Shown here piece by piece: positions 6,469-44,766 of a stretch of DNA of 64,000 nt. The position numbers and the translations under genes were made by a program. Location: contig JBDTCS010000135.1 in NCBI GenBank assembly GCA_039923455.1, positions 13,492 through 77,491 on the forward strand, written 5' to 3'. Position 1 is the first letter of the stretch. Each line of letters opens with the position of its first letter. This DNA is from Candidatus Kapaibacterium sp. (GTDB lineage: Bacteria; Bacteroidota; Ignavibacteria; Palsa-1295). The notes beneath the pieces were generated by a model, which was given only the letters and a program-made list of their open reading frames with translations, had not been told where the DNA came from and did not search any database.

Positions 6469-6534
6469 CTATTACGGCCGTGTTTCGAAATCCATCAACT
6501 CGTTGCGAGAGTAAGGTATGCTGATGGCAAAATG

Positions 6535-7389: not shown

Positions 7390-7391
7390 TC

Positions 7392-9716: not shown

Positions 9717-10064
9717 GTAAGAATAATATTACGAATGCTGGAATAATAGCTGCAAATTCAGAGAAATCAATAATCGTGCGTTCTAAACGCTTACCGTTCG
9801 ACTTTGAGTACGGATGATGTCGTAATAAATTGTTTAAGCCAGATTATTGGACTTTATCGCGTCCCGGTGGCCAAAGCTTTTCCACAGCAGGATCATTAGA
9901 TGGGGTTTATTCGATCCGTGGCTCGAGTTTGGTGAAATTTCAGGTCACATTGCCTTCGAATACGGCACAGAAATACCTTTGTTTCGTACACCTCGGGTCA
10001 AAAACTAGATTCCGTTCACGCCGACAAGGCCACACATTTGTCGTAAGTTTGCGGCCAGACTCTT

Positions 10065-11948: not shown

Positions 11949-11979
11949 TCCAAGTAGGGTAAACCAGTCTCCTTCATCG

Positions 11980-13989: not shown

Positions 13990-14007
13990 ACGAATTGACA
14001 GAGCGCT

Positions 14008-15486: not shown

Positions 15487-15645
15487 GATTCAAGTTCGAA
15501 TTCGTTCGCCTCTTCGCCTCGATCGGGAACAGCTTCCGAGCCTATGCGTTGTTCAGCGATACAGATTAGGTCCGCCGGGAGCACTCTCGCGATGGTGCTC
15601 GTTACAGACAGAGCGAACTGTCAAATAATTTCATAAACGGAACAG

Positions 15646-16695: not shown

Positions 16696-16764
16696 GTTAG
16701 AAAGAACTTGTAGTTTGCCAATTTTTCGTACCGCTCAACAGGTCATAATACATTCTTACCAATC

Positions 16765-26445: not shown

Positions 26446-27361
26446 AGATTTTGGGTAGGAAATTGGAGAAAAGTGTGATTTTATTCCATTTTTTCTTTCG
26501 TTTCGCTTGTTTTTAGCTTTTTATTTGTGCATATTTGTCCACCGCTATTGATGGTGCACCTGTGGATATCTGGTGGGAGCACTAAAAAGTAGTTTTTAGC
26601 GGTAGGAGGCCGGTTCACAAACCGCTCCGCTTTTGAATCAGGGACAAACCTGGCTACCTAATGATCGCAACTCTTGATCGCCTTATGGTACTTGCGCAGA
26701 AATTGCGTGATGCCGAGAAACATAGCGAACGGGATCCAATATACGTGGCTCTGGAATTGAACGAGCTCCATGTTTTGACTCGTCTCGTTGAAGACTATCT
26801 GGGCGACGTGGATTCTTTTTCCCCACGCTCCTCCAATAATCTGTCGTCTTCGTTCGACTGATTCCTCGTCGGTGATTGATTCGTCAACCGATCTGGAAAA
26901 GCTGATCTGGGCGCAAGATCCGTCATAACTATAAAAAATCTCCAGTTTCCTGGTAGTGAGGGTTAGCCGCAGGCGTCTTCGCCGAAGTACCTCGAATCGG
27001 CATAGTTTCCGCTCGGAATTATGACAATTCGGTGCACGTTGAAATTATGGTGCAAATTACCCAGGAGCACAAGCAAGGCAATAATTTGATGCCCTACCGC
27101 AGATTGTATCGATTGGCGTTCCGATGTGTTGTGTTGTGTGACAAGTTCTTTTAAATTGTTCCAAAATCGGATCACATTCGGTCATGCATCAAGGCGGAAC
27201 GGCAGCGCGGGAGTAAATGCCCCAATATATTTCTTTTCGCTGAGTCTTTTTTGTCGCGCTTCGGTCGAGGGGCGTGTCTCTTTATAGGTGGTGTGGTGTG
27301 CCGTGTTCAGGCTATGCGTCAGATAGCGTTATCACGAGGTCTATAAAACGAAGAAATCACT

Positions 27362-28933
27362 ATGGATCGCCGATCTTTCCTAACACTCTTTAATGGTTCG
27401 CAAGGGACAGAATACGTCCCAGCAAGTTCATTGCCTCGTCCGGAGAGTACAGGCCTCGAAGCATACGTTCCGAGTGCGAATGCACCTTGGGATGCGATCA
27501 GAGCTGGGCACCTCCTGCGTCGAACGACGATGCTTCCCCGCTGGGCAGATATTGGCACTGTGTTAGCGATGAGTCCGTCGGCCGCAGTGGACGTTCTGTT
27601 GAACACTTCGAGTGTGCCTGCCGAGCCTTCGATGGCAAATCACGACACATCCAGCGAAGCGGGGTTGAACAACACACTGATTGCACAGCTTCAAGCCACT
27701 TGGGCGCAGGATGCAGCAACCTTGCGCAAATGGTGGTCAGCGACCATGCGAGATTCCGGACTCTCGATCGTCGAAAAACTTACCATGTTCTGGAGTGGTC
27801 ACTTCACCTCTGAGTTCTTAGCCAGTGGTTCTTACGTTCTTGCAACACTGCTGTATCGACAAAACAAGATGCTTCGCGAGAACGGGCTCAAAAATTTTCA
27901 GGATCTTACATTCTACGTTACGCTAGATGGTGCGATGCTCGTCTATCTGGGTGGCAATCTAAATACGAAGGGCGCACCAAATGAGAACTATGCTCGTGAG
28001 GTGATGGAGCTCTTCACGATGGGACTCGGATGGTACACCGAAGGAGATATCCATAACGCCGCACGGGTGCTGACCGGTTGGAAGGTTGGTCAGTACAACA
28101 ACGAGCTCGCACTCAACGGAATTTTTAACCCGTACTTCTGGCCGGCAGATCACGATACGGAGAATAAACAATTCCTGGGCGTCACTATTCCAGCTCGCGA
28201 TGCCACCACGAACACGGAGTTCTTAGTCAAAAAGGATGAGATTCGATTACTAACCGACACTATATTTCAGGTGCGGCCTCAAGCCGTTGCAAAATTTATT
28301 TGCACAAAGCTCTATAAGTTTTTTGTCTATAGCAATCCTGCGGGAACGGATGATGCAGTTATCTCTGCGATGTCCGATCTCTTCATTCAAAATAATTTTG
28401 AGATCAAGCCAGTCTTGAGTGCGCTTCTGAAGAGTGCTCACTTCTTTGATAATGCGAATATTGGCGCGCAGATAAAGACGCCCGCGGAATTCGTGATCGG
28501 CCTCGAGCGTCAACTTGCGCTCATCACAGATGTCTCGACGAGTATGAGCCCGCTCGGGCAATTGCTATTCGATCCACCGAATGTAAGCGGCTGGCCTGGC
28601 TATCACGATTGGATCACGACAAATACATTTCCCGTTCGCTCCGACCTTGCCACAAGTGTTGTTGCCTCGATGGATGACACCTCAACGATGGCGTTCATTC
28701 AGCAGTTTGCAAATTATAAGGACCCGAATGGCTTGATCGATAGTGTTGCGGCGCTACTGTTGCCGCGCCCACTTTCGAAAGATCGTAAGGATGCGCTTGT
28801 CGGAAAATTGCTCGCTGGTGCGATGCCAAATGAATGGTCTTCGATCCTACTCACGAGCACCGCGACTGCAGCACGTAACATGCGCGACGTCCTGAACACC
28901 ATCACCGATCTTCCTGATTTCCAACTTTGCTAA
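27362..28933 (+). CDS. DUF1800 family protein (Tat-like signal)
   Basis: N-terminal RRSFL twin-arginine-like motif; 523 aa. Immediately upstream of a DUF1501 gene, which is the canonical DUF1800/DUF1501 gene pair. Confidence 0.6.
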   Translation: MDRRSFLTLFNGSQGTEYVPASSLPRPESTGLEAYVPSANAPWDAIRAGHLLRRTTMLPRWADIGTVLAMSPSAAVDVLLNTSSVPAEPSMANHDTSSEAGLNNTLIAQLQATWAQDAATLRKWWSATMRDSGLSIVEKLTMFWSGHFTSEFLASGSYVLATLLYRQNKMLRENGLKNFQDLTFYVTLDGAMLVYLGGNLNTKGAPNENYAREVMELFTMGLGWYTEGDIHNAARVLTGWKVGQYNNELALNGIFNPYFWPADHDTENKQFLGVTIPARDATTNTEFLVKKDEIRLLTDTIFQVRPQAVAKFICTKLYKFFVYSNPAGTDDAVISAMSDLFIQNNFEIKPVLSALLKSAHFFDNANIGAQIKTPAEFVIGLERQLALITDVSTSMSPLGQLLFDPPNVSGWPGYHDWITTNTFPVRSDLATSVVASMDDTSTMAFIQQFANYKDPNGLIDSVAALLLPRPLSKDRKDALVGKLLAGAMPNEWSSILLTSTATAARNMRDVLNTITDLPDFQLC

Positions 28934-29022: not shown

Positions 29023-30609
29023 ATGAAACGTCGTACATTCCTTCAAGGCATCGCGGCAACAGCCGCAGCCGCTCCGATCATGCTCAATGGCGTGCCTGCG
29101 CGTGCTATGACCTCGCTGCCTTTGCTTGCGCAAATGGAGGCGGATGCCGGTGACAAAATCCTCATCATCATTCAACTCTTTGGAGGTAATGACGGGCTCA
29201 ACACCGTCATCCCGATCGGTCAGGATGAATATTACAAACTTCGTCCCGTGCTCGGCATCGCCGAAAAGGATGCAGACAATGTGCTTGGAGCGGGCAAAGT
29301 ATATCTGAACCGAGCGCTCAGCAATGGATCTCGCGGTGGACTTACGGCAATGCTCGGTAACGGCACGGCTGCACTCATTCAGGGCATTGGTTACGACAAA
29401 CCCAATCTATCCCATTTTCGCTCGACAGATATTTGGCTGAGTGGAATAAACAATTCCGATCCGAACGTGCGGTTGGATACGGGTTGGGTTGGGCGTTACC
29501 TCGAAAAGCGCTATCCAACTTTTCCGCTATCATTGCCGGACGATCCACTCGCGATTCAGCTCGGTGGTTTCTCACTGGCGCTTATGAGTTCGAAGGGTCG
29601 TATGGGAATCGAAGTCGGCGATCCGAGTAAACAAAAAGGTGTCAGTTCGACGCTCGGAACCCTCGACATGGATAGTGTTGGGACGCACTACGAGATGGAG
29701 TATGCATTCGTGGCTGATATCGCAGCCCGTTCGAATAAGTATGCTGCAAATGTCAAGGCTGCTTACGCTGCCGGATCAGCAAAATTGCAAGCGCAATATG
29801 CCTCCGATGTGCTTTCGCAACAGATGGCATCCGTCGCAGCATTGATCGCGGGTGGACTCAAGACGCGAGTATATGTGGTATCGATGGGTGGCTTCGACAC
29901 ACACGTGACACAGCAAACCGATGCGCTGAACGGTCCACACCCTACCTTGCTCGGAAGACTCGCTGACTCAACCGCGCAATTCATGTTTGACATGGTTCGC
30001 CTCGGATATGCGAATAATATTATCGGAATGACCGTGAGTGAATTCGGACGTCGTCCGGCTGAGAATGGATCGTTTGGAACAGACCACGGCGCATCGAGTG
30101 TGCAGTTCGTATTCGGCACACAAGTTAACAGCGGAGTTTTTGGACAGACGCCAGATCTGACAAACCTGGATGAGAACGGCGACCTACCCTATCAAATCGA
30201 CTATCGAAGAGTGTACACCGAAATACTCGGTGATTGGTTTGGACTGACGCTCCCCGAAGCTCGCGTAATCTTGCAAGATGATTCTCTGACACCGATCGAT
30301 GTGATCAAGCCGCAAGCGGGTGTTGCCGCTCCGGCACAACCTGTGCGTGTCGAGCTTATCCAAATGGTGAACTATCCGAATCCGTTTAGTGCATCGACAA
30401 CAGTTCAGATCAATTTAGAAGCACGCTCCACGATACGCGTGGACATCACGAACACTGCAGGCCAACACATTGCCACACTTGCCGAAGGAATGCACGAACC
30501 CGGCACATACAAATTCCCATTTACGCAAGCCGAAGCTTCCGGTACATACATCTGTTCCGTCGAAGCGGGCGGTAAGCATTACACACGGATGATGCAGTGC
30601 ACAAAATAG
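29023..30609 (+). CDS. DUF1501 (sulfatase-like fold) protein with Tat signal AND a T9SS C-terminal sorting domain
   Basis: Tat motif MKRRTFLQGIAATAAAAPIMLNGVPARA. DUF1501-like body (..GGFDTH....EFGRRPAENGSFGTDHG..). C-terminal CTD (NYPNPFSASTTVQINL..VDITNTAGQHIATL..GTYKF..YICSVEAGG). Confidence 0.7.
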   Translation: MKRRTFLQGIAATAAAAPIMLNGVPARAMTSLPLLAQMEADAGDKILIIIQLFGGNDGLNTVIPIGQDEYYKLRPVLGIAEKDADNVLGAGKVYLNRALSNGSRGGLTAMLGNGTAALIQGIGYDKPNLSHFRSTDIWLSGINNSDPNVRLDTGWVGRYLEKRYPTFPLSLPDDPLAIQLGGFSLALMSSKGRMGIEVGDPSKQKGVSSTLGTLDMDSVGTHYEMEYAFVADIAARSNKYAANVKAAYAAGSAKLQAQYASDVLSQQMASVAALIAGGLKTRVYVVSMGGFDTHVTQQTDALNGPHPTLLGRLADSTAQFMFDMVRLGYANNIIGMTVSEFGRRPAENGSFGTDHGASSVQFVFGTQVNSGVFGQTPDLTNLDENGDLPYQIDYRRVYTEILGDWFGLTLPEARVILQDDSLTPIDVIKPQAGVAAPAQPVRVELIQMVNYPNPFSASTTVQINLEARSTIRVDITNTAGQHIATLAEGMHEPGTYKFPFTQAEASGTYICSVEAGGKHYTRMMQCTK

Positions 30610-30734: not shown

Positions 30735-33700
30735 GTGTGTGAGAAACGAAAGGAAGTGAATCTGATTTTCGTACCCACTATCCCAATCTCTCAACGAACG
30801 CGCGGAGTAAGAAGAAGCTTCTCACAGAGAGGTCACTCACTCCGAAGTTTCGCGTTTTGTCTAATCACAGTACTTTCGTGTTTCGCTTCGAGCGCGAACG
30901 CGCAATTCCCTGCGCCCTGCGATAAGGATAAATCGTGCATCGGAAATGCGCTTACAATCAGAGCGACTTCGGGCAAAGCTGCGCAATACGTTGATATAGA
31001 TACTTCAGCAGTGCTTCGATCGCTCGATACCGCAATGACGTTTGAGTGCTGGGTGCGCCCTGAGTTGCAGCCCGGCAAGCGGCAGTTCATTGGAGGTCTT
31101 TGGGGTCCGAACAAAGACAACAATGATCAATGGGTGTTGTACATTCAGGATAACCAGATCGTCTTCGCACTAAGCGCCGATGCTTCGTTCAAAGGTGATG
31201 TCGATAATACCATCGCTACGGCGAATGTCGCAGATCTTTATACGCGAGGTTGGGTGCATATTGCTGCGGTGTGGGATGGTGTGACAACGGTCGCTCGCAT
31301 TTATGTCGATGGTGTGCTCTTGATAAATGCGACGAACTCGCTTTTTCCGATCACGCATTTGCATCCGATCGAAAGCAAGACGCTCTCGATGCAGCTCGCA
31401 AGCTGTAATGCACTTTATGATGACACGGTTCGCTTTCGCACCTTCAAAGGCAAGCTTGATGAGATCCGCCTTTGGCGTAGAGCCCTCTCACAACCGGAGG
31501 TGCTTTGCCAAAGATACTTATCGCTCAATGGCAACGAGCCCGGGCTTATCATGTATTTTCGATGCAACGAACCAGGCAACACGCAATTCATGTGTGATGC
31601 TGCCGGAAATTTCATTGGACGTATGCGAAGCGGGGCGTTCTGTGATACGAGCAATCGAGTGCTCCCCGTAACCTTCGCTGCAGTTCCTGCTTCGGTTACG
31701 GGCAATCTTGCTTGCACGGTTGATACCACATTAAGCTTTACCGTCATTGACACCGCGTTCTGCGGGGACCGTGTGAACATTGGAGTTTTTGGCGGCAACT
31801 CGGCGCTCTTTACCGTCAGCCCAACGACGGCAGTGTTACAGCAAAATGTGCCGTTCACTTTTACGGTTCAATTACATGCGACGCTCATCGGACCGATCTC
31901 AACCGACTTGTACGTCTATAATCAAAATCGCTGCAATGCGCAGATCCGCATTCCGATACGCTACAATCGATCGACGGAGCTATCGTATTCGAAGGGTTCG
32001 CTCAATCTTGATACGCTCTACGTTGGATGTATTCAAGAAACATCGCGTGAGGATACGGTGACGATCTGCAACGTGTCGAATCGGGCAGTGACAATCTCGA
32101 AAGCAATTTTTGATAGCCTCAGATATTCCTATCACCCTGCGGCACCATCCGGGCCATTGCCGCAAGTCTTGCCACCGGGTGCTTGCTGGAAGATCGTCGT
32201 GCACATGGATGTGCTCGATTCTTCGAAGACACTCTATGACACGCTTCGCATAGTGAGCGATGACCGCTGCCCGGGAAGCGGTGCAATTCCAATCTTTGGC
32301 AGATCGCAGGAAGTAATCGCCTTGCTCGCACCGAATGGTAAGACACACGTGGACTCAATGAACTTCGGCCGCGTCTGTCCCGGATTCATTAGCAACGTAC
32401 AACTCTATCAGTATCGAGGTTTAGTGCCGGATACCGTACACATTGACTCGATAACGTATTCGACGTTCCAATTTTTTGGTGCAGGCTTTCAATTTCCGCT
32501 GAAGCTCGCACCGAAAAATGCGTACACGCCGACCTACATTCGGTTCAAACCCGACAAACCGGGTCCGTTCACGGGCGAGATGACGCTCTACTCAAGCTAT
32601 CGTGGCTGCTCGATTGTAAAGCATATTCAACTCGCAGGAGTTGGCATATCGGTCGATGTCGGATTTGATCAGCCGAATATTCTTTTCGGTAATGTTACGA
32701 TAGGTAAGTTCAAACAAATTACCGTGACGGTCACCAATCACGGCAAAGATTCGCGCCCGATGTCAACCTACCTGAAGGTGGGCGATGTCTTCGCAATCGT
32801 CGCGGGAAAGAGCTTTACGATCAATCCTGGTGAGACGAAGTCGATCACCGTCGAATTCCGTCCGAGAGAGCTGAAGACGTATCCGGATACACTTTGTCTT
32901 TTTGATCAAGGCTGCTATCAATCCGTATGTATTCCGATCACCGGCACGGGAGTTTTTGATCAGCTTTCGTTCACGCCTCCATTTTTGCGTATGGATAATG
33001 TTATCGGTTGCAAGTGTCAGACCGATACCGTTATCGTAGAAAATATTTCTTCTGGGAGCGTCACGATCACTTCGGACAATCTGAATGATCCGAGTGGTAA
33101 GCTGAAGATGATCAGTGGCTCCTACGCGGGAAGTTTTGCCGCCGGACGAAAGCTGCAATACATCGTGCAGTATTGCCCGAACGATCTCAATCAAGATCGC
33201 GCAGATGATGCCTATATCGATATCAAACTTTCCGATGGGCAGATTTATCAAGTTTTGATTCGCGCAACCTCGGTTGCACCAAAACTATACGTGACGCCGC
33301 TGACAACGTTTAACATCGTTGAGGTTGGTTGGCAAAAGCGAGACAGCATCTTAGTGGAAAATGAGAGTGCCGTTCCATTACATGTGACCTCTGTCAGCGT
33401 GCCTCCGGGATATGTGGTGATTCAAACATTTCCACCACTGCCAACAACCCTCAATCCTCGTGACACGTTGTGGGTCGAGGTCGAATTCAGGCCGCTTGCA
33501 GAGACAAGTTACGATGGGCCGATCACGCTCTCACTCGATGATCCATGCTCGCTTAGTTATTCCGGTGTCATCACTGGTCGTGGACAGATTGTCCGGCTCG
33601 AAGTTGCGATGAGTTTTATCAATTATGGATTGATCAAGCCGTGCGATTGTGTGACGCGTGTGATTCCATTGCCGAATTATAGTAACACGCTCCCAATCTC

Positions 33701-35756
33701 TATCGACTCAATCTGGATTGATGGCGCGGGCGTTGCTTCGCCATTCCCGGCGGTATTCAATTGGAGTTCGAAAGTTAGTCCGACCGGTGCGCTACCATAT
33801 CTGATACCAAAACTTGGTGCCGATACGTTGCTCGTTTCGTTCTGCCCGAACATCCCTGCCATTCTGGCGAACACGCTTACGAATGCGACGTTGCACATCA
33901 AAGCCAGCAAGCCCGGATGGTCGCAAACGTTTACGACCGTTCTGAGTGGCCGACGTGAATTAAATTTCCAGCCGAGTAAAGTGCTCGCAAGCTTCCCTGC
34001 AACGCGTGTGGATACGAGTGCTGCACCGATCAACGTAGATATTTCGGTACCGGATGCATTCGTGAATCCGAGTGGGGATAGTGTGATCATTGACGCGATT
34101 TCGTTTGCGCCCGACCAGAAGGTTTTCTCGGCCGTTGCAGCCAATGGTGCACCGTTGCCTTGGATCATTCATCGCAATCAAAAATTCTCGATCAAAGTCA
34201 GCTTCTTCCCGAGAGCTCCGAAAGATTATGTAGCACGCTTGCTCCTGCACACGATCTTCCCATGCGTCGGGTATGATACATCGATCTTGTGTAAAGGTAC
34301 AGGTTTTGCGCCTGCCTTCGGTTTGCAGATGGCCTTCGATACTTCGATTGTCGGGAAAGATACGATTCATCTGACCACCTGCGACACGCTCACGCTACCA
34401 ATCATGATCAGCCGTGCGATACCGCAGAGCATTATTGATATTCTCTTCCGCTTGCAGTACGATACCACATCGCTCAAGTTCTTAGATATCGTTTCACAGT
34501 TTACAACCGATGCGACGGTAAATGACTCATCGGGCAATGCGCTCGCGAAGCTGAAGAATGCGCGGAACGTACAAGCCGGAGTAGTCGCTACGTTGAGATT
34601 CATCGTACGTGGAACAGCGCGCGGATTCCCAATCATTCTTGATAATATTTTCTTCGATAGCGATTCGCTCGTATTCTTTAAGATCGTTGCAGGCCTCGAT
34701 AAAGGCTATATTCGGATCGATGATCCGATGATCACGATCACCCAAAAAACGAGCTTTGATACCGTGAATGCTCGCTCATGCGACGACCGAATTGTGATCG
34801 TTCGGAATCCCGGATTGATACCCGTCCGTTTCGATTCGCTTTCCGGATTGCCGAAGTGGCATACCGTTACGAAGAGCAGCAAGCCATACCCGACCATTTT
34901 GCAGCCGGGAGATTCTATCGTGCTTACTGTGACGTTCTGCCCACGCAGCCAAGTGACGTTCGATACTTCGATGCTCGCTGTCTCGAATCAGCCGTGCCCG
35001 ATCGCAGATAGCGGCGCGTTGCATAGCTTCGGATATGCTGCACCATTCCCGTTCACACTCTCGATTGGCGGAGTTGTTACGACGGTCGATTCTGTACGCG
35101 GGCAAATTGCGGACACGGTGTATGTACCGATTTTGATTGATCGCGATTTCCCACTTTCGCCGATCGACATGAACTATAGCTTGCAATACAACAGGCGCTC
35201 GCTCGAATATATGAGTGTTGCCTCGAAGTATGCGAAGGCAACCGTCACGCAATTGCCAGGGGGGATCTCGATCAAACTTCCCGGTTCAACCAACGTGAAG
35301 AAGGGCGAGATTGCGAGAGTGAAATTTGTGATCGCTGTGCCGGATAGCATTCTGACACTGATGATCCTTTCGCCTGATCCGTTCACAAGTGACTCCGACC
35401 TTTGGCTGACACCAAAGCCTGCCGGAGATACTACGATGGTTCGCGTCGACAAGAAGTGCAACATTACGCGACTCGTATTTACGACAGGAATTAACACGCT
35501 CTCCGTACCGGTGCCCAATCCATCGACGAATCGCGTTCGGATTGACGTGGAATTTGTCGAAGACGCGAATGCAACGCTCAAGATATTCGATGCGACGGGA
35601 CGCGAAGTCTATCGACCGCTTTCGGGTGATGTGCTAATGAAGGGCGGAAAATATTCTGTTGATCTGGATGTTTCACGCTTCTCACCCGGCGCCTATTTCT
35701 ATCGGATTGAAGCAGGAACGTACCGTGAGACGAAACGTATGTTAATACTTCGCTAA
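30735..35756 (+). CDS. Giant (1673 aa) secreted protein: N-terminal LamG/ConA-like lectin domain, many Ig/PapD-like beta modules, T9SS C-terminal sorting domain
   Basis: Signal-like hydrophobic segment LRSFAFCLITVLSCFASSANAQ sits after a ~35-aa N-extension. LamG-like region ends ..LDEIRLWRRALSQPEV. C-terminal CTD (PVPNPSTNRVRIDVEF..LKIFDATGREVY..SPGAYFYRIEAG). Confidence 0.7.
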   Translation: MCEKRKEVNLIFVPTIPISQRTRGVRRSFSQRGHSLRSFAFCLITVLSCFASSANAQFPAPCDKDKSCIGNALTIRATSGKAAQYVDIDTSAVLRSLDTAMTFECWVRPELQPGKRQFIGGLWGPNKDNNDQWVLYIQDNQIVFALSADASFKGDVDNTIATANVADLYTRGWVHIAAVWDGVTTVARIYVDGVLLINATNSLFPITHLHPIESKTLSMQLASCNALYDDTVRFRTFKGKLDEIRLWRRALSQPEVLCQRYLSLNGNEPGLIMYFRCNEPGNTQFMCDAAGNFIGRMRSGAFCDTSNRVLPVTFAAVPASVTGNLACTVDTTLSFTVIDTAFCGDRVNIGVFGGNSALFTVSPTTAVLQQNVPFTFTVQLHATLIGPISTDLYVYNQNRCNAQIRIPIRYNRSTELSYSKGSLNLDTLYVGCIQETSREDTVTICNVSNRAVTISKAIFDSLRYSYHPAAPSGPLPQVLPPGACWKIVVHMDVLDSSKTLYDTLRIVSDDRCPGSGAIPIFGRSQEVIALLAPNGKTHVDSMNFGRVCPGFISNVQLYQYRGLVPDTVHIDSITYSTFQFFGAGFQFPLKLAPKNAYTPTYIRFKPDKPGPFTGEMTLYSSYRGCSIVKHIQLAGVGISVDVGFDQPNILFGNVTIGKFKQITVTVTNHGKDSRPMSTYLKVGDVFAIVAGKSFTINPGETKSITVEFRPRELKTYPDTLCLFDQGCYQSVCIPITGTGVFDQLSFTPPFLRMDNVIGCKCQTDTVIVENISSGSVTITSDNLNDPSGKLKMISGSYAGSFAAGRKLQYIVQYCPNDLNQDRADDAYIDIKLSDGQIYQVLIRATSVAPKLYVTPLTTFNIVEVGWQKRDSILVENESAVPLHVTSVSVPPGYVVIQTFPPLPTTLNPRDTLWVEVEFRPLAETSYDGPITLSLDDPCSLSYSGVITGRGQIVRLEVAMSFINYGLIKPCDCVTRVIPLPNYSNTLPISIDSIWIDGAGVASPFPAVFNWSSKVSPTGALPYLIPKLGADTLLVSFCPNIPAILANTLTNATLHIKASKPGWSQTFTTVLSGRRELNFQPSKVLASFPATRVDTSAAPINVDISVPDAFVNPSGDSVIIDAISFAPDQKVFSAVAANGAPLPWIIHRNQKFSIKVSFFPRAPKDYVARLLLHTIFPCVGYDTSILCKGTGFAPAFGLQMAFDTSIVGKDTIHLTTCDTLTLPIMISRAIPQSIIDILFRLQYDTTSLKFLDIVSQFTTDATVNDSSGNALAKLKNARNVQAGVVATLRFIVRGTARGFPIILDNIFFDSDSLVFFKIVAGLDKGYIRIDDPMITITQKTSFDTVNARSCDDRIVIVRNPGLIPVRFDSLSGLPKWHTVTKSSKPYPTILQPGDSIVLTVTFCPRSQVTFDTSMLAVSNQPCPIADSGALHSFGYAAPFPFTLSIGGVVTTVDSVRGQIADTVYVPILIDRDFPLSPIDMNYSLQYNRRSLEYMSVASKYAKATVTQLPGGISIKLPGSTNVKKGEIARVKFVIAVPDSILTLMILSPDPFTSDSDLWLTPKPAGDTTMVRVDKKCNITRLVFTTGINTLSVPVPNPSTNRVRIDVEFVEDANATLKIFDATGREVYRPLSGDVLMKGGKYSVDLDVSRFSPGAYFYRIEAGTYRETKRMLILR

Positions 35757-35783
35757 ATAAATTTTGGGAGCGTTCACTACCGA

Positions 35784-37889
35784 TTGATGACCGATCAAAA
35801 AAAGAGACGGGTATTTTGTGGATGGCCGTTCACCATACGTGTGATCGACTTTTTCGCCGTGTTCATGTTCTTTGCAATCGGCGGTTTCGGTTCAGGCAAT
35901 TTTGTGAGTCGAGCGAGTGCACAGGGGCTGAATGCTGTTGATCCGGTGGTCGTAGAACCAAGCCATCCGTTTCATCTCGGTCTCTACGGTGGTTATGCAA
36001 TCAACTTTCATAGAACGCAAGCCGATATTTTTGTCGATTGTCCGGAGTGTGGGCAGTTTAGTCAAGGGACAGGAAGTGGTTTTGCGTTAGGTCTCTTCGG
36101 TGAATTGCCCGTGCTGACGGAAGGTGTTCAAGCCTATCTCGGAATTAATTACGCGCAACGTGGTGGCACGTTCGGTGAAGTGAATACGGGTGGATTACCC
36201 ATTCTCGATCCACAGACAAGTCAGTATGTGACGTTAACACGCAAACACTCTTCGTCGGCCAATCTCGGGTATGTTGTGATCGATCTGGGGCTCAGCTATC
36301 GTCCCTTCATATCGTTTCCGATATACATACGCGGTGCGCTCAATTACAATCCGGCGCTCGGTGCTTCTTCGAGTTATCATGAAACCGAAGAAATTATCTC
36401 TCCACAAGGTGTGCTCTATCCGGAGAATAATCAAAGGACTCGTGACGTTGCGAGCGGAATCATCACGGGTGTTACTTCTCCATTTGGAATCGCTGGGACG
36501 TTAGGCTATCCACTGCCGGTCGGACACAATATTACGGCATCCCCCGAAATAAGTTACTATCAGCCACTGAGCAGTGTGGTCGCTTCGAGTCACTGGAAAG
36601 TGTCGGCCTTGCAGTTGGGTGTAGCGCTTCGGTACCACGCTGGTGAGCCCGAGCCTTTGCCACCACCGGCTCCACCACCTCCTGCACCGCCTGAAGTCCC
36701 GAAGCCACTTCCACCGGTGATTTCGCTTGCCACTTTGGCCGGACAAAAGATCGATATTCTCGAAACAATCGTCACCGAGACATTCCCGATCTTGCCTTAC
36801 GTTTTTTATGATAGTGCATCGAGTGCGCTACCGGCACGATACGTCCAGATTCCGGCAAAGGACACGCGGAATTTCGCGGAGAGTGATCTACCGCATCAGT
36901 CACTCGATGCGTATCATCAGATATTAAATGTTGTCGGTAGCCGAATGTTGGCTGACGAAAAAGCGGACCTTACGTTACGCGGTACTACAGACGGAAAAGA
37001 GACCGTGGGTGATGAAGAGTCTAAAAAGCTCGCAATCGCTCGTGCACAGAGCATCAAGGATTATCTCGTTACTAACTGGGCGATCGCTCCGGAACGCATC
37101 ACAGTCGAGAGCGGCGGAGCTCCAACATTTCCCTCTACCGAAGAATATCCGGAAGGAATTGCAGAAAATAGACGCGTTGAACTTTCATCGAACAATGATG
37201 AATTGCTTCGACCAATTTTGCATGAGCGCTTCAAGCAGCATGTGATTCATCCTGCACGGATTCCGCTCACAACAACGATGCAAGAGCCCGCTCGTGCGGA
37301 TCATTGGAAGCTCACGGCTTACGCAAAGGGCAAGCCGGTGTGGCAGCAAGAGGGTGCTGGCGCACCACCAACGAGCATTCCGTGGGAGCTTGATCAGAAG
37401 AGTGCGACAAATATTGCCGAGCAGATCATGGGACGTGACTCACTTACCTGCGAACTTACAGTAACTGCAAAAGACGGACTGACATCCGTTTCACGCGTGA
37501 AGCTTGCAGGAGAAAAATCGGTGAATCCGTTCGAGCTTAGTCGGTTGAGTTTGATCGTGTTCGATTTTGACAAGTTCGAAATCACCGAGCAGAATCGAAG
37601 AATGATCTCGCATTTTGTCTCGCACTCTATTCTGCCTTCGTCACAATCCACGATTGTCGGCTCGACCGATAACCTCGGTGAGGCCAGGCACAATCAACAG
37701 CTTTCCGAAGGCCGCGCGTTTGCCGTTCGTGATCTAATACTCCAAGAGCGTAGTGATACAAAGATCGTCAGCACGGATGGCGTTGGAGCTTCCCGTCAGC
37801 TATATAGCAACGATGCTCCTGAGGGACGCTATTATTGCAGAACGGTGACCGTCGAAGTGCAAACACCGCTCGAAGATGTTGTGCACTAA
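35784..37889 (+). CDS. OmpA-family outer-membrane protein: N-terminal beta-barrel, Pro-rich hinge, two OmpA-like peptidoglycan-binding domains
   Basis: Amphipathic beta-strand N-domain; hinge EPEPLPPPAPPPPAPPEVPKPLPP; OmpA_C hallmarks (..NRRVELSS.. and ..GEARHNQQLSEGRAFAV..). Sits 28 bp downstream of giant T9SS cargo gene 2. Confidence 0.7.
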   Translation: MMTDQKKRRVFCGWPFTIRVIDFFAVFMFFAIGGFGSGNFVSRASAQGLNAVDPVVVEPSHPFHLGLYGGYAINFHRTQADIFVDCPECGQFSQGTGSGFALGLFGELPVLTEGVQAYLGINYAQRGGTFGEVNTGGLPILDPQTSQYVTLTRKHSSSANLGYVVIDLGLSYRPFISFPIYIRGALNYNPALGASSSYHETEEIISPQGVLYPENNQRTRDVASGIITGVTSPFGIAGTLGYPLPVGHNITASPEISYYQPLSSVVASSHWKVSALQLGVALRYHAGEPEPLPPPAPPPPAPPEVPKPLPPVISLATLAGQKIDILETIVTETFPILPYVFYDSASSALPARYVQIPAKDTRNFAESDLPHQSLDAYHQILNVVGSRMLADEKADLTLRGTTDGKETVGDEESKKLAIARAQSIKDYLVTNWAIAPERITVESGGAPTFPSTEEYPEGIAENRRVELSSNNDELLRPILHERFKQHVIHPARIPLTTTMQEPARADHWKLTAYAKGKPVWQQEGAGAPPTSIPWELDQKSATNIAEQIMGRDSLTCELTVTAKDGLTSVSRVKLAGEKSVNPFELSRLSLIVFDFDKFEITEQNRRMISHFVSHSILPSSQSTIVGSTDNLGEARHNQQLSEGRAFAVRDLILQERSDTKIVSTDGVGASRQLYSNDAPEGRYYCRTVTVEVQTPLEDVVH

Positions 37890-39166: not shown

Positions 39167-40480
39167 ATGCTATTCAGACGAATACATTTTAAAAAGCGTT
39201 TTTGGCATGCCGCGCTTCTTGCTGCCGCAATGCTATCGACACTATGGACTCAGCGATCGGAAGCGCAGGAAAACCCGAACGGGGTTGCCACGATCACGAT
39301 GCACTCGGCAGTTGTCGAAGCATTAGAGCACAATCCAACACTTGGTGCACTACGCTTCGAACCCAAGGCCGCACGTGCGGATGAAGTCACAGCAGGCCTT
39401 CGCCCAAACCCAACTGCGACGGTGAATGCCGATTTGCTGCCAAGTGATGGGCTCTCCAGCAAGGACAAAAACTATGGCATATCGCTCAGCTTTCCATTCG
39501 AACTCGGCGGAAAGCGAGATGCCCGTTTGGCTTTTGCAAGGGAAGGGAGTTCACTCGCGGATCTGCAATACGCGGATGCACTACGACAAACGACGCTTGC
39601 AGTGCGCCTAAGTTATATCGACTTCGCAAGCACGCGAGCGCGAGCGCTTGCGACACAAGAGAATCTTGGTCTCCTCGATTCGCTCGTCATCATCAGCAAG
39701 GCGCGCGTAGCAGGAAAGGATATTGCTCAAGTTGAACTCACACGTACGGAAGTCGAGCGAGAAAAATTTGCACTCGAAAGTGCGAAGGCAATGGAAGATC
39801 ATCGTGCAGCGAGAACCTCTCTTTTTGCTTTACTCGGACGTCCGGCCGGCCAGGTAATTCAATTGCCCGATACGACACTATTTATTGCTGTCGCGGCTAT
39901 CTCAAAACGTGAGTTGCCATCACTCGACTCACTTATTGCGACCGCAAGTAGCGCAAGAACTGACATTCAGGCGTTGGAAGCTAACGAGCAATTAGCGGCA
40001 GCAAATGCAGACTTGCAACGGTCGCTCGCTTCGATCGATCTCTCGATCTCGCTTGACTACATGCGTTCACAATCGATTACCTACTACGGCACAACGCTTT
40101 CCTTCCCGTTACCGCTCTTCAATCGGAATCAGGGCGAGATCGAGAAAGCAAGTATCCGACAAGAGCAAGTGAAGCAGCAAACATTCGCTGCGCTCGCACA
40201 GCTTCGTGCCGATGTAACGAACGCTTGGTTCGACGCTAAGAATAAACAGCACACACTCCGAACGCTTGTCGAGAGTGTTCTGCAAAAGTCGTTCGACGTT
40301 CGATCGGCGATTGAATATTCCTATCGCAGGGGCGGCACATCGCTGATCGATTTTCTCGATGCAGCCCGCACATACAACGAGCTCCGGCAATCTTATGTCG
40401 ATGCACTCGGTGACTACGCAAAAAGTTTGGTAACTCTCAACGCAATTATCGGAAAGGATATTTTCAATGAAATTCAATAA
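39167..40480 (+). CDS. TolC-family outer-membrane efflux protein (CzcC/CusC-like)
   Basis: Signal peptide and two-repeat TolC-like coiled-coil architecture. First gene of an OMF-MFP-RND operon; 14-bp overlap with the next gene. Confidence 0.75.
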   Translation: MLFRRIHFKKRFWHAALLAAAMLSTLWTQRSEAQENPNGVATITMHSAVVEALEHNPTLGALRFEPKAARADEVTAGLRPNPTATVNADLLPSDGLSSKDKNYGISLSFPFELGGKRDARLAFAREGSSLADLQYADALRQTTLAVRLSYIDFASTRARALATQENLGLLDSLVIISKARVAGKDIAQVELTRTEVEREKFALESAKAMEDHRAARTSLFALLGRPAGQVIQLPDTTLFIAVAAISKRELPSLDSLIATASSARTDIQALEANEQLAAANADLQRSLASIDLSISLDYMRSQSITYYGTTLSFPLPLFNRNQGEIEKASIRQEQVKQQTFAALAQLRADVTNAWFDAKNKQHTLRTLVESVLQKSFDVRSAIEYSYRRGGTSLIDFLDAARTYNELRQSYVDALGDYAKSLVTLNAIIGKDIFNEIQ

Positions 40481-41498
40481 ATCATTCCTCACACAAGCTC
40501 GTAAACAACGAGTGAGTCTAAGTTTAATTGTAGTGTTGTTCGGCACATTCGGACTGCACTCGTGCACAACCACAGAACATCCGAACGAAAAGAGCACGGT
40601 CGATACTGGTGCGGCCTCCAGAATTCGACCCATCGTTTCGGCTAATGGCGAGAAGATCACTTTCTCGGAAGGAGATTCATCCCGCAAGGTCTTGACCCTC
40701 GGCAAAGCGGAATTTAAGAATGTCTCGATCACGACTACCGCTCCTGCTCGAATTATTCTCACTACGGTCTCGACGCCCGGCTCGAAGATTAGTGTGCCGG
40801 TTTTCGAGACATCCGATCTAACGCAACTTTTCACAGACTACACACGCGCCAAACACGACCTTGGCCGAGCAACAAGAGAGCTCGAACGCTTGCGTGATCT
40901 TTTTGCGCATAATGCGGTCGCCGGCAAAGACGTCACACAGGCCGAGAGCGATCAACTATCCGCACAAGTCACTCTGACGGGTCTTGAGTCACGATTGCTT
41001 ACAGCCGGGCTCTCAGCGAATGAACTGGAGCATTTGCGTCCGGATATTTCGCTCTTACTCGCCAATGTTCCGGAGTCCGAGATTACCAGTGTACAGATGG
41101 GCGAGGATGCACAGATCGAATTCGATTCGTTTCGTGGCGAGATTATGCACGGTCGTGTGCTCGATATCGGTCACGCCGTCGATCCGACTACTCGCACGTT
41201 CAATGTGCGAATCGAGCTTGCCAACAAGGTCAAGATGCTGCGCCCAGGCATGTTCGCACGTGCTTCGTTCGGTGTGGATGTGTTGCGCAGATTTGTGGTG
41301 CCACAATCTGCTGTCGTCTCTGTGCAAGGGAAGTCTTTCGTGTTTGTAACGACGGATGGAAAAAGCTTCGAACGCCGAGAAGTCACACTCGGTCAACAAT
41401 CCAAAAGCGATTTCATCATCATGAGTGGCCTGGCCGAAGGTGAATCGGTGGTGACAGAAGGTGCAGTCCTGCTCAAAGGTCTGAGCTTCGGATCATAA
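40467..41498 (+). CDS. Efflux RND transporter periplasmic adaptor subunit (MFP; CzcB/CusB-like)
   Basis: Lipoprotein-like N-terminus, coiled-coil hairpin, beta-barrel/MP domains (..MLRPGMFARASF..VPQSAVV..GKSFVFV..). Confidence 0.8.
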   Translation: MKFNKSFLTQARKQRVSLSLIVVLFGTFGLHSCTTTEHPNEKSTVDTGAASRIRPIVSANGEKITFSEGDSSRKVLTLGKAEFKNVSITTTAPARIILTTVSTPGSKISVPVFETSDLTQLFTDYTRAKHDLGRATRELERLRDLFAHNAVAGKDVTQAESDQLSAQVTLTGLESRLLTAGLSANELEHLRPDISLLLANVPESEITSVQMGEDAQIEFDSFRGEIMHGRVLDIGHAVDPTTRTFNVRIELANKVKMLRPGMFARASFGVDVLRRFVVPQSAVVSVQGKSFVFVTTDGKSFERREVTLGQQSKSDFIIMSGLAEGESVVTEGAVLLKGLSFGS

Positions 41499-41529
41499 CA
41501 ATCTCAATGTAAAGACAAGGAGAAAAATT

Positions 41530-44500
41530 ATGATTCGCAAATTAGTACATTTCGCAATGCGGCAGCGCGTGCTGACGCTCTTGTTTGCGCTGCTCATAAT
41601 CGTGGGTGGCATCGCATCGTATCTCACGCTCAAGATCGAGGCCTATCCGGATGTCGCTGACACCGAAGTAGATGTGATCACAAAATATCCGGGTCGTGCA
41701 GCAGCAGAAGTCGAGCAACAAGTCACGATACCTATTGAGCGTGCACTCAATTCTGTTCCACGAGTTGTGAACAGACGCTCGCGCACGATCTTTGGTCTCT
41801 CGATCGTAAAGCTCACGTTCGATGAAGGCACCGACGATTATTTCGCACGGCAGCAAGTGATAGAAAAATTGCGTGGGGCGGATATTCCGGATGGGCTTAA
41901 TCCCGATCTGGCACCGCTATCTACACCAGTCGGAGAAATATTCCGATACGTAATCGAAGGGAAGCCCGGCATCAGCGCAATGGATCTTCGCACGTTGCAA
42001 GATTGGGTTGTCGTGCCAAAGCTGTTGCAAGCCAAAGGTGTAGCTGATGTTGCGAACTTTGGTGGATTGGTGAAGCAGTTTAGTGTGATCCTCGATCCGA
42101 TCAAACTGCGTAAATATGCACTCACCGTTAATGCCGTTCAAACCGCGATACAGGCGAACAATTCAAACACCGGCGGTAACATCATCGAGCGAGGCAGCCA
42201 GGGACTATCGATTCGAGGCATTGGTACCATTCGTTCGGCGGATGACATTGCTTCGATCGTACTTGCTTCGAGCAACTCCACCGGCACGCCGATCTTTGTG
42301 AAAGATGTCGGCTCGATCGAGATCACTGCGCTTCCACCATCCGGCGTACTTGGCTATACGGACATCGCTCGACACAACGACGTAAGTAATGGCGTCGAAG
42401 GCATCGTCTTGATGCGCCGTGGTGAAAACCCCAGCGAGGTGCTTAAATCGTTGAAAGAAAAACTTGAGGAGGCGAAGGCCGCCATGCCGGAAGGCGTGGA
42501 GATCTTCACGATTTATGATCGCAGTGAACTAGTCGAGAACACGCTGCACACCGTCAGTCACACGTTGATCGAAGGTGTGACGATCGTCGTGATTATTCTT
42601 CTCTTCTTCCTCGGGAATATACGGGCCGCACTACTTACCGCAATCACGATTCCGCTATCCCTGCTTTTCGCATTCATCGTGATGCGGTTCACTGGTATCC
42701 CTGCGAATTTGCTTTCCCTCGGAGCGATTGACTTCGGCATCATTGTCGATGGCGCGGTGATCATGACCGAAGCGATCATGCGAAAATTTTCGCATACACC
42801 GAAAGATGTGCGTGATCGACTCGGTACCGTCCGGTTGATCCTCGAGGCTACGCAAGAGGTTGATCGACAGATATTTTTTTCTGTTGTGATCATCATAATT
42901 GCGTATCTACCACTGTTCACGCTTACTCGCGTGGAAGGGAAGCTGTTCTCACCTATGGCATATACCCTCTCGTATGCCATAGGTGGCTCACTTCTCTTTG
43001 CATTGACGGTCGTGCCGGTTATCGCGACCTATCTCTTCCGTTCGGGTGTGGTCAAGGAGTGGGAGAACCCCATTGTAAAACTCCTTGATCGCTCCTACGG
43101 AAGACTTACCGCAACGCTACTCAAATATCGGAAGCTCGTACTGGCTTCCGCAGTTTGCGTTGTGCTTGGTGCGCTTTTCATTGGATCACAACTCGGTACC
43201 GAGTTCTTACCTGAACTCGATGAAGGTGCGGTCGTCATTCGAACCGTGTTGCCGGCAGGTATTTCGCTGACCGAGGCCGCGCATTATCCGCCCATGATTC
43301 GAGAGGTCGTCAGCGCATTCCCGGAAGCGCGAGTGGTCATCACGCATCTGGGTCGCAATGATGATGGTACGGATCCCTACGGCCCGAACCGCATTGAGAC
43401 CCATATCGAACTCACGAAGTATGACACATGGCCGAGCGGAGTCGACAAGCATCAATTGCTGAAGGAGATAAAAGCAGGGCTCGAAAACAAAATACCCGGA
43501 GCGTCATTCAGCTTTTCGCAACCTATCCTTGACAATGTGACAGAAGCCGTCACGGGGTCAAGTGCCGATCTTGCGGTGCTGGTGAATGGAGATGATCTTG
43601 GTAAATTGCGAGCCTACGCCGACACCATCTATCACGTGATAAAAGGCATTCGCGGAGCGACCGAGTCGGGCATCGAGGAAGAGGGGGATCAAGCGCAACT
43701 GCGTATCGAAGTGAAGCGCCAAGCAGCGGCGCGCTATGGTATTAATGTTCGTGATGTCGAAGATGTGATAGAGTTGGCTGTTGCAGGAAAGCCCGTCAGC
43801 ACACTCTACGAAGGTGAGCGGAAGTTTGATATCGTGGTACGCTATCAAGCAAATACGCGTTCGACCGTCGAGGAAGTATCGCGACTTGAAGTAACTTCAC
43901 CGGCGGGTCAGCGCATTCCGATCTCCGAACTTGCCGACATTCGTATCGAAGATGGCTCGACGATCATCGCAAGAGAAGATGGGCACAGACAAGTTGGCGT
44001 GCGAACGAACGTTCGTGAACGCGATCAAGGAAGCTTTGTCGCGGAGGCGCAAGCAAAAGTTGCGCAGGTGTTGCATCTGCAAAAAGGCTATTCGGTCGAT
44101 TGGGGTGGACAATTCGAAAATCTGACGCGCGCGAAAGATCATCTTGTGGTGATCATTCCGATTACGCTATTTTTGATTTTTGGCTTACTCTTCATCACTT
44201 TCAAGTCTGTGAAATATGCACTCATCGTTTTGGTGAATGTTCCGCTTGCACTCGTCGGTGGTATTCTGGCATTGTGGGGCCGTGGTATCAACTTCTCGGT
44301 CTCCTCCGGTGTCGGATTTATATCGTTGTTCGGTGTGGCTGTGATGTCGGGAGTCTTGCTGATCGCTCGGTTTAATCAGCTTCGTTTCGTGCACCACATG
44401 CCGCTTAAGGAAGCAGTCGAGCAAGGTGCACGCGATGAATTGCGACCGATACTTATGATGATGCTTGTTGCATTGCTTGGCCTCATTCCCGCATCGCTCG

Positions 44501-44766
44501 CAACGGGAATAGGTTCGGACGTGCAGCGACCGCTTGCAACCGTGATCGTCGGAGGTTTGGCGAGTGCTTTGCTGCTCACACTCATTGTGTTGCCTGCGTT
44601 ATATTATTCCATCGAGAAGCGAGGGAGAGTCAACAAAGCCGCTATCGCAATCGAATTGCAAGAGCTTGACGAGCATGATCACGCCTTGCAACTTCGCGAA
44701 GAGCACGATCGCGAACTTCGGGAGTTGCGTGAGCAACAAAATAATAGTGACACTCACAAACAGTGA
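41530..44766 (+). CDS. czcA: Heavy-metal efflux RND permease, CusA/CzcA family
   Basis: 1078 aa; 12-TM RND topology; HME-RND-type conserved blocks (..GAIDFGIIVDGAVIM.. , ..ISLFGVAVMSGVLL..). Third gene of the operon. Confidence 0.9.
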   Translation: MIRKLVHFAMRQRVLTLLFALLIIVGGIASYLTLKIEAYPDVADTEVDVITKYPGRAAAEVEQQVTIPIERALNSVPRVVNRRSRTIFGLSIVKLTFDEGTDDYFARQQVIEKLRGADIPDGLNPDLAPLSTPVGEIFRYVIEGKPGISAMDLRTLQDWVVVPKLLQAKGVADVANFGGLVKQFSVILDPIKLRKYALTVNAVQTAIQANNSNTGGNIIERGSQGLSIRGIGTIRSADDIASIVLASSNSTGTPIFVKDVGSIEITALPPSGVLGYTDIARHNDVSNGVEGIVLMRRGENPSEVLKSLKEKLEEAKAAMPEGVEIFTIYDRSELVENTLHTVSHTLIEGVTIVVIILLFFLGNIRAALLTAITIPLSLLFAFIVMRFTGIPANLLSLGAIDFGIIVDGAVIMTEAIMRKFSHTPKDVRDRLGTVRLILEATQEVDRQIFFSVVIIIIAYLPLFTLTRVEGKLFSPMAYTLSYAIGGSLLFALTVVPVIATYLFRSGVVKEWENPIVKLLDRSYGRLTATLLKYRKLVLASAVCVVLGALFIGSQLGTEFLPELDEGAVVIRTVLPAGISLTEAAHYPPMIREVVSAFPEARVVITHLGRNDDGTDPYGPNRIETHIELTKYDTWPSGVDKHQLLKEIKAGLENKIPGASFSFSQPILDNVTEAVTGSSADLAVLVNGDDLGKLRAYADTIYHVIKGIRGATESGIEEEGDQAQLRIEVKRQAAARYGINVRDVEDVIELAVAGKPVSTLYEGERKFDIVVRYQANTRSTVEEVSRLEVTSPAGQRIPISELADIRIEDGSTIIAREDGHRQVGVRTNVRERDQGSFVAEAQAKVAQVLHLQKGYSVDWGGQFENLTRAKDHLVVIIPITLFLIFGLLFITFKSVKYALIVLVNVPLALVGGILALWGRGINFSVSSGVGFISLFGVAVMSGVLLIARFNQLRFVHHMPLKEAVEQGARDELRPILMMMLVALLGLIPASLATGIGSDVQRPLATVIVGGLASALLLTLIVLPALYYSIEKRGRVNKAAIAIELQELDEHDHALQLREEHDRELRELREQQNNSDTHKQ

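Follow-up and report, generated by a model that had tools for sequence, protein, structure and literature searches.

The 64,000-nucleotide stretch of a Candidatus Kapaibacterium sp. contig that we analyzed (JBDTCS010000135.1, positions 13,492 to 77,491; hereafter the window) contains a conserved unit of four genes. They encode a DUF1800 protein, a DUF1501 protein with both a twin-arginine translocation (Tat) signal and a C-terminal sorting domain (CTD) of a type IX secretion system (T9SS), a giant T9SS cargo protein, and an OmpA-family protein in which a β-barrel precedes two OmpA-like domains (the barrel-2xOmpA protein, or OmpA protein). With a probability of about one half, we read the OmpA protein as a cargo-linked anchor that sits in the outer membrane and is fastened to peptidoglycan, within this four-gene envelope module. 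The reading is built throughout on gene context and predicted structure, from which we infer that the OmpA protein binds the cargo. Three lines of evidence carry it. As judged from sequence, the giant combines a signal peptide with a type A CTD, and its gene and the OmpA gene stay tightly linked through rearrangements. The OmpA protein is predicted to be an outer membrane barrel with two domains of the peptidoglycan-binding type on a proline-rich tether. Genes for paralogs of the OmpA protein show a preference for the place directly behind the genes of other large CTD cargos. Together they support an OmpA protein that would be functionally tied to its cargo and not a stray housekeeping gene.

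A four-gene module in several gene orders

Homologs of the OmpA protein fall into well over 100 clusters, almost all full-length and ranging from 96% down to 27% identity, and they come from Kapaibacteria, Ignavibacteria and Chlorobi-like metagenome-assembled genomes (MAGs). A scan of species-representative genomes returned 381 relatives; the loci examined were the best 80 of these 381 and five more found through contig look-ups, and they are cited here by L numbers. In the clade of the window, at 44 to 59% identity, the order is always DUF1800, DUF1501-CTD, giant and OmpA, followed by a convergent GAF gene (the window, L001, L003, L007, L008, L009, L028 and L044). Three other loci (L032, L042 and L088) have the order OmpA, DUF1800, DUF1501-CTD, giant, and their giants of 1670 to 1678 aa are 32 to 37% identical to the window cargo over the full length; L026, L027 and L038 share that order with one extra gene. 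The module of L032 is found in MAGs labeled Chloroherpeton thalassium. In L023 the giant is followed by OmpA, and there is no DUF1800 or DUF1501 gene within 10 kb.

The giant and the OmpA protein are therefore found clustered together, in at least four gene orders, down to approximately 30 to 35% identity, and the identities of cargo and OmpA protein drop in parallel (66/58%, about 52/46% and about 33/30%). In a comparison of the two homolog tables, at least 30 OmpA homologs of at least 40% identity match a cargo homolog in the length of the longest contig, which suggests that the two share a contig. The retention of the neighborhood through at least four arrangements argues for functional coupling and not for inherited gene order. 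An earlier note on this DNA, made from the sequence alone, had proposed that the giant and the OmpA gene form a cargo-plus-anchor pair built with an OmpA-type barrel instead of PorP. The barrel type has held up and the tie to the cargo is supported; the pair as the unit was dropped after the DUF1800/DUF1501 linkage and the permuted gene orders emerged. The note's model of a partner encoded immediately downstream also fails as a conserved feature of the pair, because other lineages have the OmpA gene first and the giant last.

Two of the loci deserve separate mention. L089 (positions 833-15013, from the Ignavibacteria MAG GCA_020852855) encodes SprA (2305 aa, SprA_N), then an OmpA protein and a giant LamG cargo, each of 35% identity. 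The window-clade locus L044 has a second DUF1800-DUF1501 pair just 3' of the OmpA gene (13294-17165), which is consistent with tandem duplication as a route to the cyclically permuted gene orders.

The DUF1800 protein begins with MDRRSFLTLF, which contains a twin-arginine-like RR motif, and it has no CTD. The DUF1501 protein carries a Tat signal of the classic type (MKRRTFLQGIAATAAAAP...ARA) and ends in a type A T9SS CTD (2e-15 with a custom CTD hidden Markov model), a combination that implies a Tat-then-T9SS export route; its orthologs at other loci likewise end in a CTD. The DUF1800 protein might travel with DUF1501. The OmpA family is linked to DUF1800 in 26 loci, in two gene orders, and DUF1800-DUF1501 pairs are known elsewhere as a conserved operon (PMC5122149). 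An open reading frame (ORF) of 66 aa lies 5' of the DUF1800 gene (26661-26861, + strand), and L001 (1040-1240) and L003 (1290-1490) have genes of the same length called at the matching position; the ORF may encode a small, conserved member of the module.

The giant cargo and its OmpA-family neighbor

An ORF check found both ORFs where the earlier note had placed them, and most of its domain reading stands as well (Table 1). The cargo, entered at NCBI as MEO6939580.1 under the name choice-of-anchor D domain-containing protein, consists of a lectin-type head, a stalk of approximately 12 β-sandwich beads and a CTD. The head is the concanavalin A/LamG-like domain that the note had seen ending in LDEIRLWRRALSQPEV. 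Behind it, Pfam and NCBIfam profiles match choice-of-anchor D (NF012200, 4.5e-26) and ASH (4e-21) modules, and an iterated profile built from an ASH module finds eight immunoglobulin-like (Ig) modules of this type between residues 410 and 1434 (410-525, 531-638, 636-740, 738-847, 844-951, 949-1075, 1072-1191 and 1326-1434). The AlphaFold2 (AF2) model of residues 1185-1673, with a predicted local distance difference test score (pLDDT) of 86, shows four all-β modules in series, two of which are weakly cohesin-like: Pfam Cohesin scores 6e-4, under its cut-off, and Foldseek returns 2w1n (cohesin plus FN3) at 1.7e-9 amid generic Ig arrays. Cohesin-dockerin docking was rejected as the binding mode, given the subthreshold Cohesin score, the generic character of the Ig-array matches and the lack of any dockerin-like motif visible by eye. 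One further module probably occupies residues 305-410. With this one, the eight ASH modules, the two cohesin-like modules and the CTD, the count of more than ten Ig-like modules given in the note is about right.

That the giant is a T9SS cargo is borne out by two CTD profiles above their cut-offs (PF18962, Por_Secre_tail, 35.7 bits against 27; TIGR04183, 33.4 bits against 23), and the type B signal CHU_C stays below its own (16.7 bits against 27). As in other type A cargos, the CTD lies at the extreme C-terminus (1594-1671 of 1673) of a protein with a hydrophobic signal core. Cargo homologs form more than 100 full-length clusters of 1620 to 1710 aa with 100% coverage and identities from 67% down to 35%, and approximately 26 cysteine positions of the giant are conserved.

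The unusual N-terminal extension of approximately 35 aa that the note had remarked on appears to come from uncertainty or error over the start codon. Ahead of the signal core, just two in-frame codons are canonical starts, GTG 30735 and GTG 30756; PGAP uses the latter (1666 aa) and JGI an internal Met (1573 aa). In the L001 and L003 orthologs, ordinary signal peptides stand directly ahead of the conserved mature start QFPAxCD, which is QFPAPCD in the window copy. Because the orthologs lack the extension and the gene callers disagree on the start, we do not regard it as a conserved feature.

Some giants are split in two ORFs, in L008 (4844-9860; 807 + 893 aa) and in L054 and L059 (2113 + 328 aa and 2979 + 314 aa). 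Frameshifts or misassembly of long, repetitive genes probably account for the splits, and the smaller pieces could pass for small CTD proteins beside the OmpA gene. A triplet of giant, PorP-like protein of approximately 320 aa and OmpA protein in L054 and L059 was rejected on these grounds, since the ORFs of 328 and 314 aa carry CTDs and are C-terminal fragments, probably of split giants, rather than PorP.

The OmpA gene starts at TTG 35784 or at ATG 35787, the start used by NCBI (700 aa), so that it lies 27 or 30 nt behind the cargo stop codon and not the 28 bp of the earlier note. The two ORFs share a reading frame, with one TAA stop and nine sense codons between them; read-through or fusion forms were not seen among the homologs. 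Promoter and terminator scans gave counts that did not differ from those in shuffled sequence, and support only the lack of an obvious interruption in the 30-nt gap.

The AF2 model of the OmpA protein, built with 110 homologs (pLDDT 89.3), has a signal peptide followed by five regions, in agreement with the N-terminal barrel, proline-rich hinge (EPEPLPPPAPPPPAPPEVPKPLPP) and two OmpA-like domains of the note. The signal peptide ends ...SRASA/QG and has no lipobox cysteine. The barrel is OmpA/OmpX-like and not PorP/SprF-like. Foldseek against the PDB gave 199 matches at E ≤ 0.001, and among the best 50 of these the barrel matches OmpA, Ail, OmpX, NspA, the 10-stranded OmpT and Pla and, weakly, OmpF, with no FadL, PorV or PorP chain. 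The profile search that the note had suggested came out the same way: PorP_SprF (PF11751) and TIGR03519 have no match in the full-length protein, in the isolated barrel at E ≤ 10 or in any of 31 diverse family members at E ≤ 1, compared with nine of the 31 that match OMP_b-brl_2 and four that match OMP_b-brl. A PorP/SprF identity of the barrel was thus ruled out by the scans of protein, barrel and homologs together with the OmpA/OmpX-type Foldseek matches. The barrel by itself retrieved 910 representative clusters, among the top 150 of which lengths of 640 to 750 aa are nearly universal; therefore the barrel is essentially always fused to a double OmpA part.

The periplasmic part begins behind the linker with a degenerate OmpA-like domain: Asp402 is conserved and Arg419 invariant, and the domain is called degenerate because the canonical Asn is missing and the Asp-to-Arg segment is two residues longer than usual. 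The β-sandwich insert that follows matches nothing in Pfam at E ≤ 10. Domain 2 has the triad D628/N636/R643, with spacings of 8 and 7 and all three residues invariant in the 110 homologs. This is the pattern of the peptidoglycan-binding triad of PorE, D576/N584/R591 (PMC12773672), and peptidoglycan binding is predicted here too. The OprF C-domain (5u1h) is matched by Foldseek at 4.8e-9 with a TM score of 0.74. PF00691 (OmpA) scores 68.6 bits on the protein, against a gathering cut-off of 27.2, in two stretches, and matches 31 of 31 family members.

Two cysteines stand out. Each of the 110 homologs has Cys88 (window 36048-36050), which is placed in external loop 1 of the predicted barrel and for which the barrel offers no conserved partner cysteine; Cys684, in periplasmic domain 2, is 92% conserved. 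An intermolecular disulfide between the OmpA protein and the giant cargo is conceivable.

Table 1. Features of the four-gene module, in window positions
Feature	Position	Strand	Details and basis
DUF1800 protein gene, first of the module	27362..28933	+	523 aa; Pfam DUF1800 1e-92
DUF1501 protein gene, second of the module	29023..30609	+	528 aa; Pfam DUF1501 9e-23, Por_Secre_tail 3e-4
Giant T9SS cargo gene	30735..35756	+	1673 aa from GTG 30735; 1666 aa from GTG 30756
Cargo signal peptide region	30756..30902	+	Long Arg-rich n-region, hydrophobic core FAFCLITVLSCFASSANA; sequence
LamG/concanavalin A-like head, residues 83-256	30981..31502	+	Laminin_G_3 9.2e-18; ends in LDEIRLWRRALSQPEV
Seven tandem ASH/choice-of-anchor D Ig modules, residues 410-1191	31962..34307	+	Iterated profile search; NF012200, ASH
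Membrane-proximal stalk: cohesin-like module, eighth ASH module (1326-1434), second cohesin-like module	34308..35513	+	AF2, Pfam, Foldseek
Type A T9SS CTD, residues 1594-1671	35514..35747	+	PF18962, TIGR04183
Intergenic spacer	35757..35786	+	30 nt; no terminator-like or promoter-like site in scans
Barrel-2xOmpA outer membrane protein gene	35787..37889	+	700 aa; NCBI MEO6939581.1, OmpA family protein
Predicted 12-stranded β-barrel, residues 63-284	35973..36638	+	AF2, Foldseek
Proline-rich periplasmic linker	36639..36719	+	EPEPLPPPAPPPPAPPEVPKPLPP; sequence; low pLDDT at about residues 290-310
OmpA-like domain 1, about residues 312-470	36720..37196	+	Conserved lead-in hairpin ETIVTETFPILPYVFYDSAS; Pfam OmpA, MotB-type NCBIfam (355-470), AF2
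β-sandwich insert between the OmpA-like domains, residues 477-589	37215..37553	+	AF2
OmpA-like domain 2, residues 590-699	37554..37883	+	Pfam OmpA 593-683, Foldseek, invariant columns

Elsewhere in the window, a gene for a TIR-domain protein with TPR repeats (10065-11948, + strand, 627 aa) directly precedes one for a CAP/fn3 protein that bears a T9SS CTD (11980-13989, + strand, 669 aa). Downstream of the module lies an RND efflux operon (39167-44766, + strand; OEP, membrane-fusion protein and AcrB-type pump) whose synteny extends to L001 and L002 but does not include L003; it has no bearing on the cargo-OmpA finding. No T9SS core genes turned up among the annotated ORFs, which cover approximately 1-15.5 kb and 19.9-45.4 kb of the window, and no Rfam families were found in the window.

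CTD cargos beside the OmpA family, and competing explanations

CTDs were counted with a profile run over a simple gene model for 85 loci. In 35 of 79 cases (44%) the gene at position -1 of the OmpA gene ends in a CTD, compared with 80 of 772 other flank positions (10%), an enrichment (odds ratio 6.9, Fisher p = 8e-13) that is uncorrected for phylogeny and stands on an already high local background of 10% CTD genes. Cargos lie upstream of the OmpA gene more often than downstream (35:10, p = 2.5e-4), 31 of the 39 large ORFs upstream independently have a Por_Secre_tail match in Pfam, and the CTD-cargo association recurs in at least 11 of the 25 OmpA sub-clusters. Save for their ASH stalks and CTDs, these upstream cargos are unrelated, with heads of the Kelch, VWA, VWA plus WD40, LamG and Ig_7 types. 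The gaps between cargo and OmpA genes amount to a few nucleotides, with many 4-nt overlaps, and several genomes have two or three OmpA-family paralogs. In the window itself there are six CTD-bearing ORFs and one barrel-2xOmpA gene, and therefore not every cargo has such a partner; a second giant T9SS cargo (19862-24217, + strand; 1451 aa with IgGFc_binding, ASH Ig and CTD) has no OmpA-family gene after it.

Under the anchor reading, the T9SS would export the giant, which would stand on the surface as a lectin head on a stalk, and the OmpA protein would sit in the outer membrane, bind peptidoglycan in the periplasm and serve as a fixed docking site that keeps its cognate cargo on the cell surface. 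The OmpA protein may also hold the DUF1501/DUF1800 enzyme pair. One polypeptide would then combine the roles of a PorP-like barrel and a PorE-like OmpA_C protein, with an unrelated barrel and for a type A cargo. A bolder form of this proposal, tentative and in our judgment rather doubtful, is that the barrel-2xOmpA family is a previously unrecognized class of cargo-specific, wall-tethered anchors for type A CTD proteins. Each paralog would capture its cognate stalked adhesin after export, at a site of attachment between outer membrane and peptidoglycan, either noncovalently or through Cys88, with retention independent of or additional to PorV/PorU lipid anchoring, and the window anchor would also organize the DUF1501/DUF1800 pair.

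Several findings, besides the two limits on the enrichment given above, weigh against an anchor. In 44 of the 79 family loci (56%) there is no CTD gene at -1, and the neighbors found there instead include LysE, DUF1015, a glycosyltransferase, OMP decarboxylase and DNA glycosylase. The CTDs adjacent to OmpA genes do not form a clearly distinct subclass: their mean identity is 22.4% against 22.0%, and the nearest-neighbor value is 53% against 29 ± 10%, a weak signal from an alignment biased toward those CTDs. A 12-stranded barrel with short loops leaves limited external surface for docking. The sister clade (cluster 7, at 33 to 38% identity, approximately 17 loci) has the order LysE, OmpA, DUF1800, DUF1501-CTD and no adjacent giant, and one giant ortholog stands alone in L087. 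The co-occurrence of giant and OmpA gene across genomes that the earlier note had called for is therefore kept down to about 30 to 35% identity and is incomplete, and conservation of the OmpA gene apart from the giant, which the note had said would count against its proposal, is in part what we found. Because no genome among the examined loci carries both the cluster 7 form and the window form, the two look orthologous. Finally, type A CTD cargos are described as using the common shuttle PorV, with no private partner known, and as being linked to anionic lipopolysaccharide (A-LPS) (PMC12618676, PMC9143113).

Much of this would be expected if the OmpA protein were a general tether between outer membrane and peptidoglycan, a housekeeping protein of the OmpA/OprF/Pal type whose linkage to cargos reflects co-expression of envelope genes or inherited gene order. 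All of its sequence and fold matches are generic OmpA-family members; the clade without an adjacent giant and the many loci without a CTD gene at -1 fit such a role, as do flanks that are CTD-rich overall and the lack of any known need of type A cargos for private partners (PMC12618676). We nevertheless consider a general tether unlikely, if a serious contender, since inertia alone would not predict a neighborhood that is kept to approximately 30% identity while its order is scrambled, and since several paralogs per genome lie beside different, unrelated cargos with a strong -1 bias and 4-nt overlaps. It is distinctly less probable that the OmpA protein is a PorE-like accessory of the T9SS machinery, which ties the translocon or attachment site to the wall, and that the giant is a structural cargo like PG1035 and not a privately anchored adhesin. 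The position of the L089 OmpA gene directly between sprA and the giant would suit this explanation, as would the presence, in L016 and L024, of sprA on the other strand approximately 3.5 kb upstream, the fixed length of the giant across its many clusters, unlike typical variable adhesins, and the precedent of PorE-PorP-PG1035, where a cargo is part of a wall-anchored T9SS sub-complex (PMC9143113). However, sprA is near the OmpA gene in only three of 89 loci, so that its linkage was rejected as a general feature; paralogs with diverse cargos fit cargo-specific roles better; and the protein has no similarity to PorE beyond the OmpA_C fold, and no lipobox.

A quite improbable explanation is that the exported enzyme pair of DUF1800 and DUF1501 are the true partners of the OmpA protein, the giant being a passenger inserted in some lineages. 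Of all arrangements, OmpA-DUF1800-DUF1501 has the widest distribution (clusters 1, 2, 7 and 11, permuted in cluster 6; the 26 loci mentioned above), it exists without the giant in cluster 7, and the pair forms a conserved operon in other organisms (PMC5122149). Giant and OmpA gene are adjacent without DUF1800 or DUF1501 in L023 and L089, however, and remoter paralogs pair with other cargos and have neither enzyme gene. This explanation is compatible with a cargo-linked anchor because DUF1501 is itself a CTD cargo.

The question matters since current T9SS models reserve private outer membrane partners (PorP/SprF-like proteins, sometimes with PorE-like wall anchors) for type B cargos, and have all type A cargos share the PorV shuttle and become lipid-anchored. 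If the OmpA protein is a cargo-linked anchor, the rule of a cargo plus cognate anchor would extend to type A substrates and to lineages whose T9SS has hardly been studied. The barrel-2xOmpA family is large, with hundreds of clusters at 50% identity in Kapaibacteria, Ignavibacteria and Chlorobi-like lineages. The module would give a first functional handle on a conserved giant surface protein of fixed length, on the widespread, uncharacterized DUF1800/DUF1501 pair and on an apparent Tat-plus-T9SS export route. The adjacency of cargo and OmpA genes also provides more than 100 natural sequence pairs for co-evolution analysis or complex prediction.

Comparison with known systems

A literature search, of incomplete coverage, found no paper that links OmpA-family proteins to type A cargos or describes the module. 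The finding would best be filed, on the strength of comparative genomics, as a variation on the known theme of a cargo with a cognate outer membrane or wall anchor. The nearest systems are SprB-SprF and Fjoh_3952-3951-3950 of Flavobacterium johnsoniae and PG1035-PorP-PorE of Porphyromonas gingivalis (PMC9143113, PMC12618676), in which a large adhesin-like T9SS cargo likewise adjoins the gene of an outer membrane barrel. F. johnsoniae has 10 PorP-like proteins (PMC9143113), and in five of its operons the genes of a PorE homolog, a type B cargo and an SprF-like barrel stand together; their products have been proposed to assemble into a static complex anchored to the wall (PMC12618676). In P. gingivalis a PorE-PorP-PG1035 complex places a cargo within a wall-anchored T9SS sub-complex (PMC9143113). 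As here, OmpA_C domains of the peptidoglycan-binding kind form part of the module, a genome has several paralogous partners, each beside its own cargo, and the partner is mostly encoded immediately downstream and often translationally coupled. A static, wall-anchored surface complex is proposed in both cases, in that of the window module from comparative genomics.

The differences are considerable. PorP/SprF is a 14-stranded outer membrane barrel of the FadL type (PMC9143113), whereas the barrel described here has 12 predicted strands, an OmpA/OmpX-type fold and no match to PF11751 or TIGR03519, and is joined to two OmpA_C-like domains in one polypeptide, unlike the separate PorP and PorE. PorE is a lipoprotein with TPR, WD40 β-propeller, CRD and OmpA_C domains, of which only OmpA_C is shared; Pfam found no TPR, WD40 or CarboxypepD_reg match in the OmpA protein or its family. 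The SprB/SprF precedent invoked by the earlier note also falls short in that those cargos have type B CTDs and the giant a type A CTD. The module further differs from the SprB/PorP systems in its Kapaibacteria/Ignavibacteria lineage, in the addition of DUF1800 and DUF1501 and in its variable gene order.

OmpA of Escherichia coli, OprF of Pseudomonas aeruginosa and OmpA of Capnocytophaga have the same plan of a small N-terminal barrel, a flexible linker and an OmpA_C domain with the D/N/R triad, and OmpA/OprF-type porins are the best Foldseek and Pfam matches of the OmpA protein. Unlike these classical proteins, it has 12 predicted strands instead of eight, a duplicated OmpA_C-like domain with a β-sandwich between the copies and an invariant lone cysteine in external loop 1, and it belongs to a multi-paralog family beside T9SS cargos.

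A more distant parallel is offered by the outer-membrane-exchange adhesin TraA/TraB of Myxococcus xanthus, in which both proteins are needed for one function (PMC3325183). TraA resembles the cargo in its lectin-type head (PA14, LamG here), its repetitive cysteine-containing stalk and its C-terminal sorting signal, and TraB is encoded by the next, overlapping gene of the operon, has an OmpA-like peptidoglycan-binding domain and is proposed to contact or cross the outer membrane with its N-terminal part. There is no homology between the systems (the TraB model NF033763 scores 30.4 bits on the OmpA domain only, against a cut-off of 700), the sorting signal of TraA is MYXO-CTERM and not a T9SS CTD, and the phylum is another one. 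TraA is polymorphic, whereas the giant encoded in the window is conserved and of fixed length.

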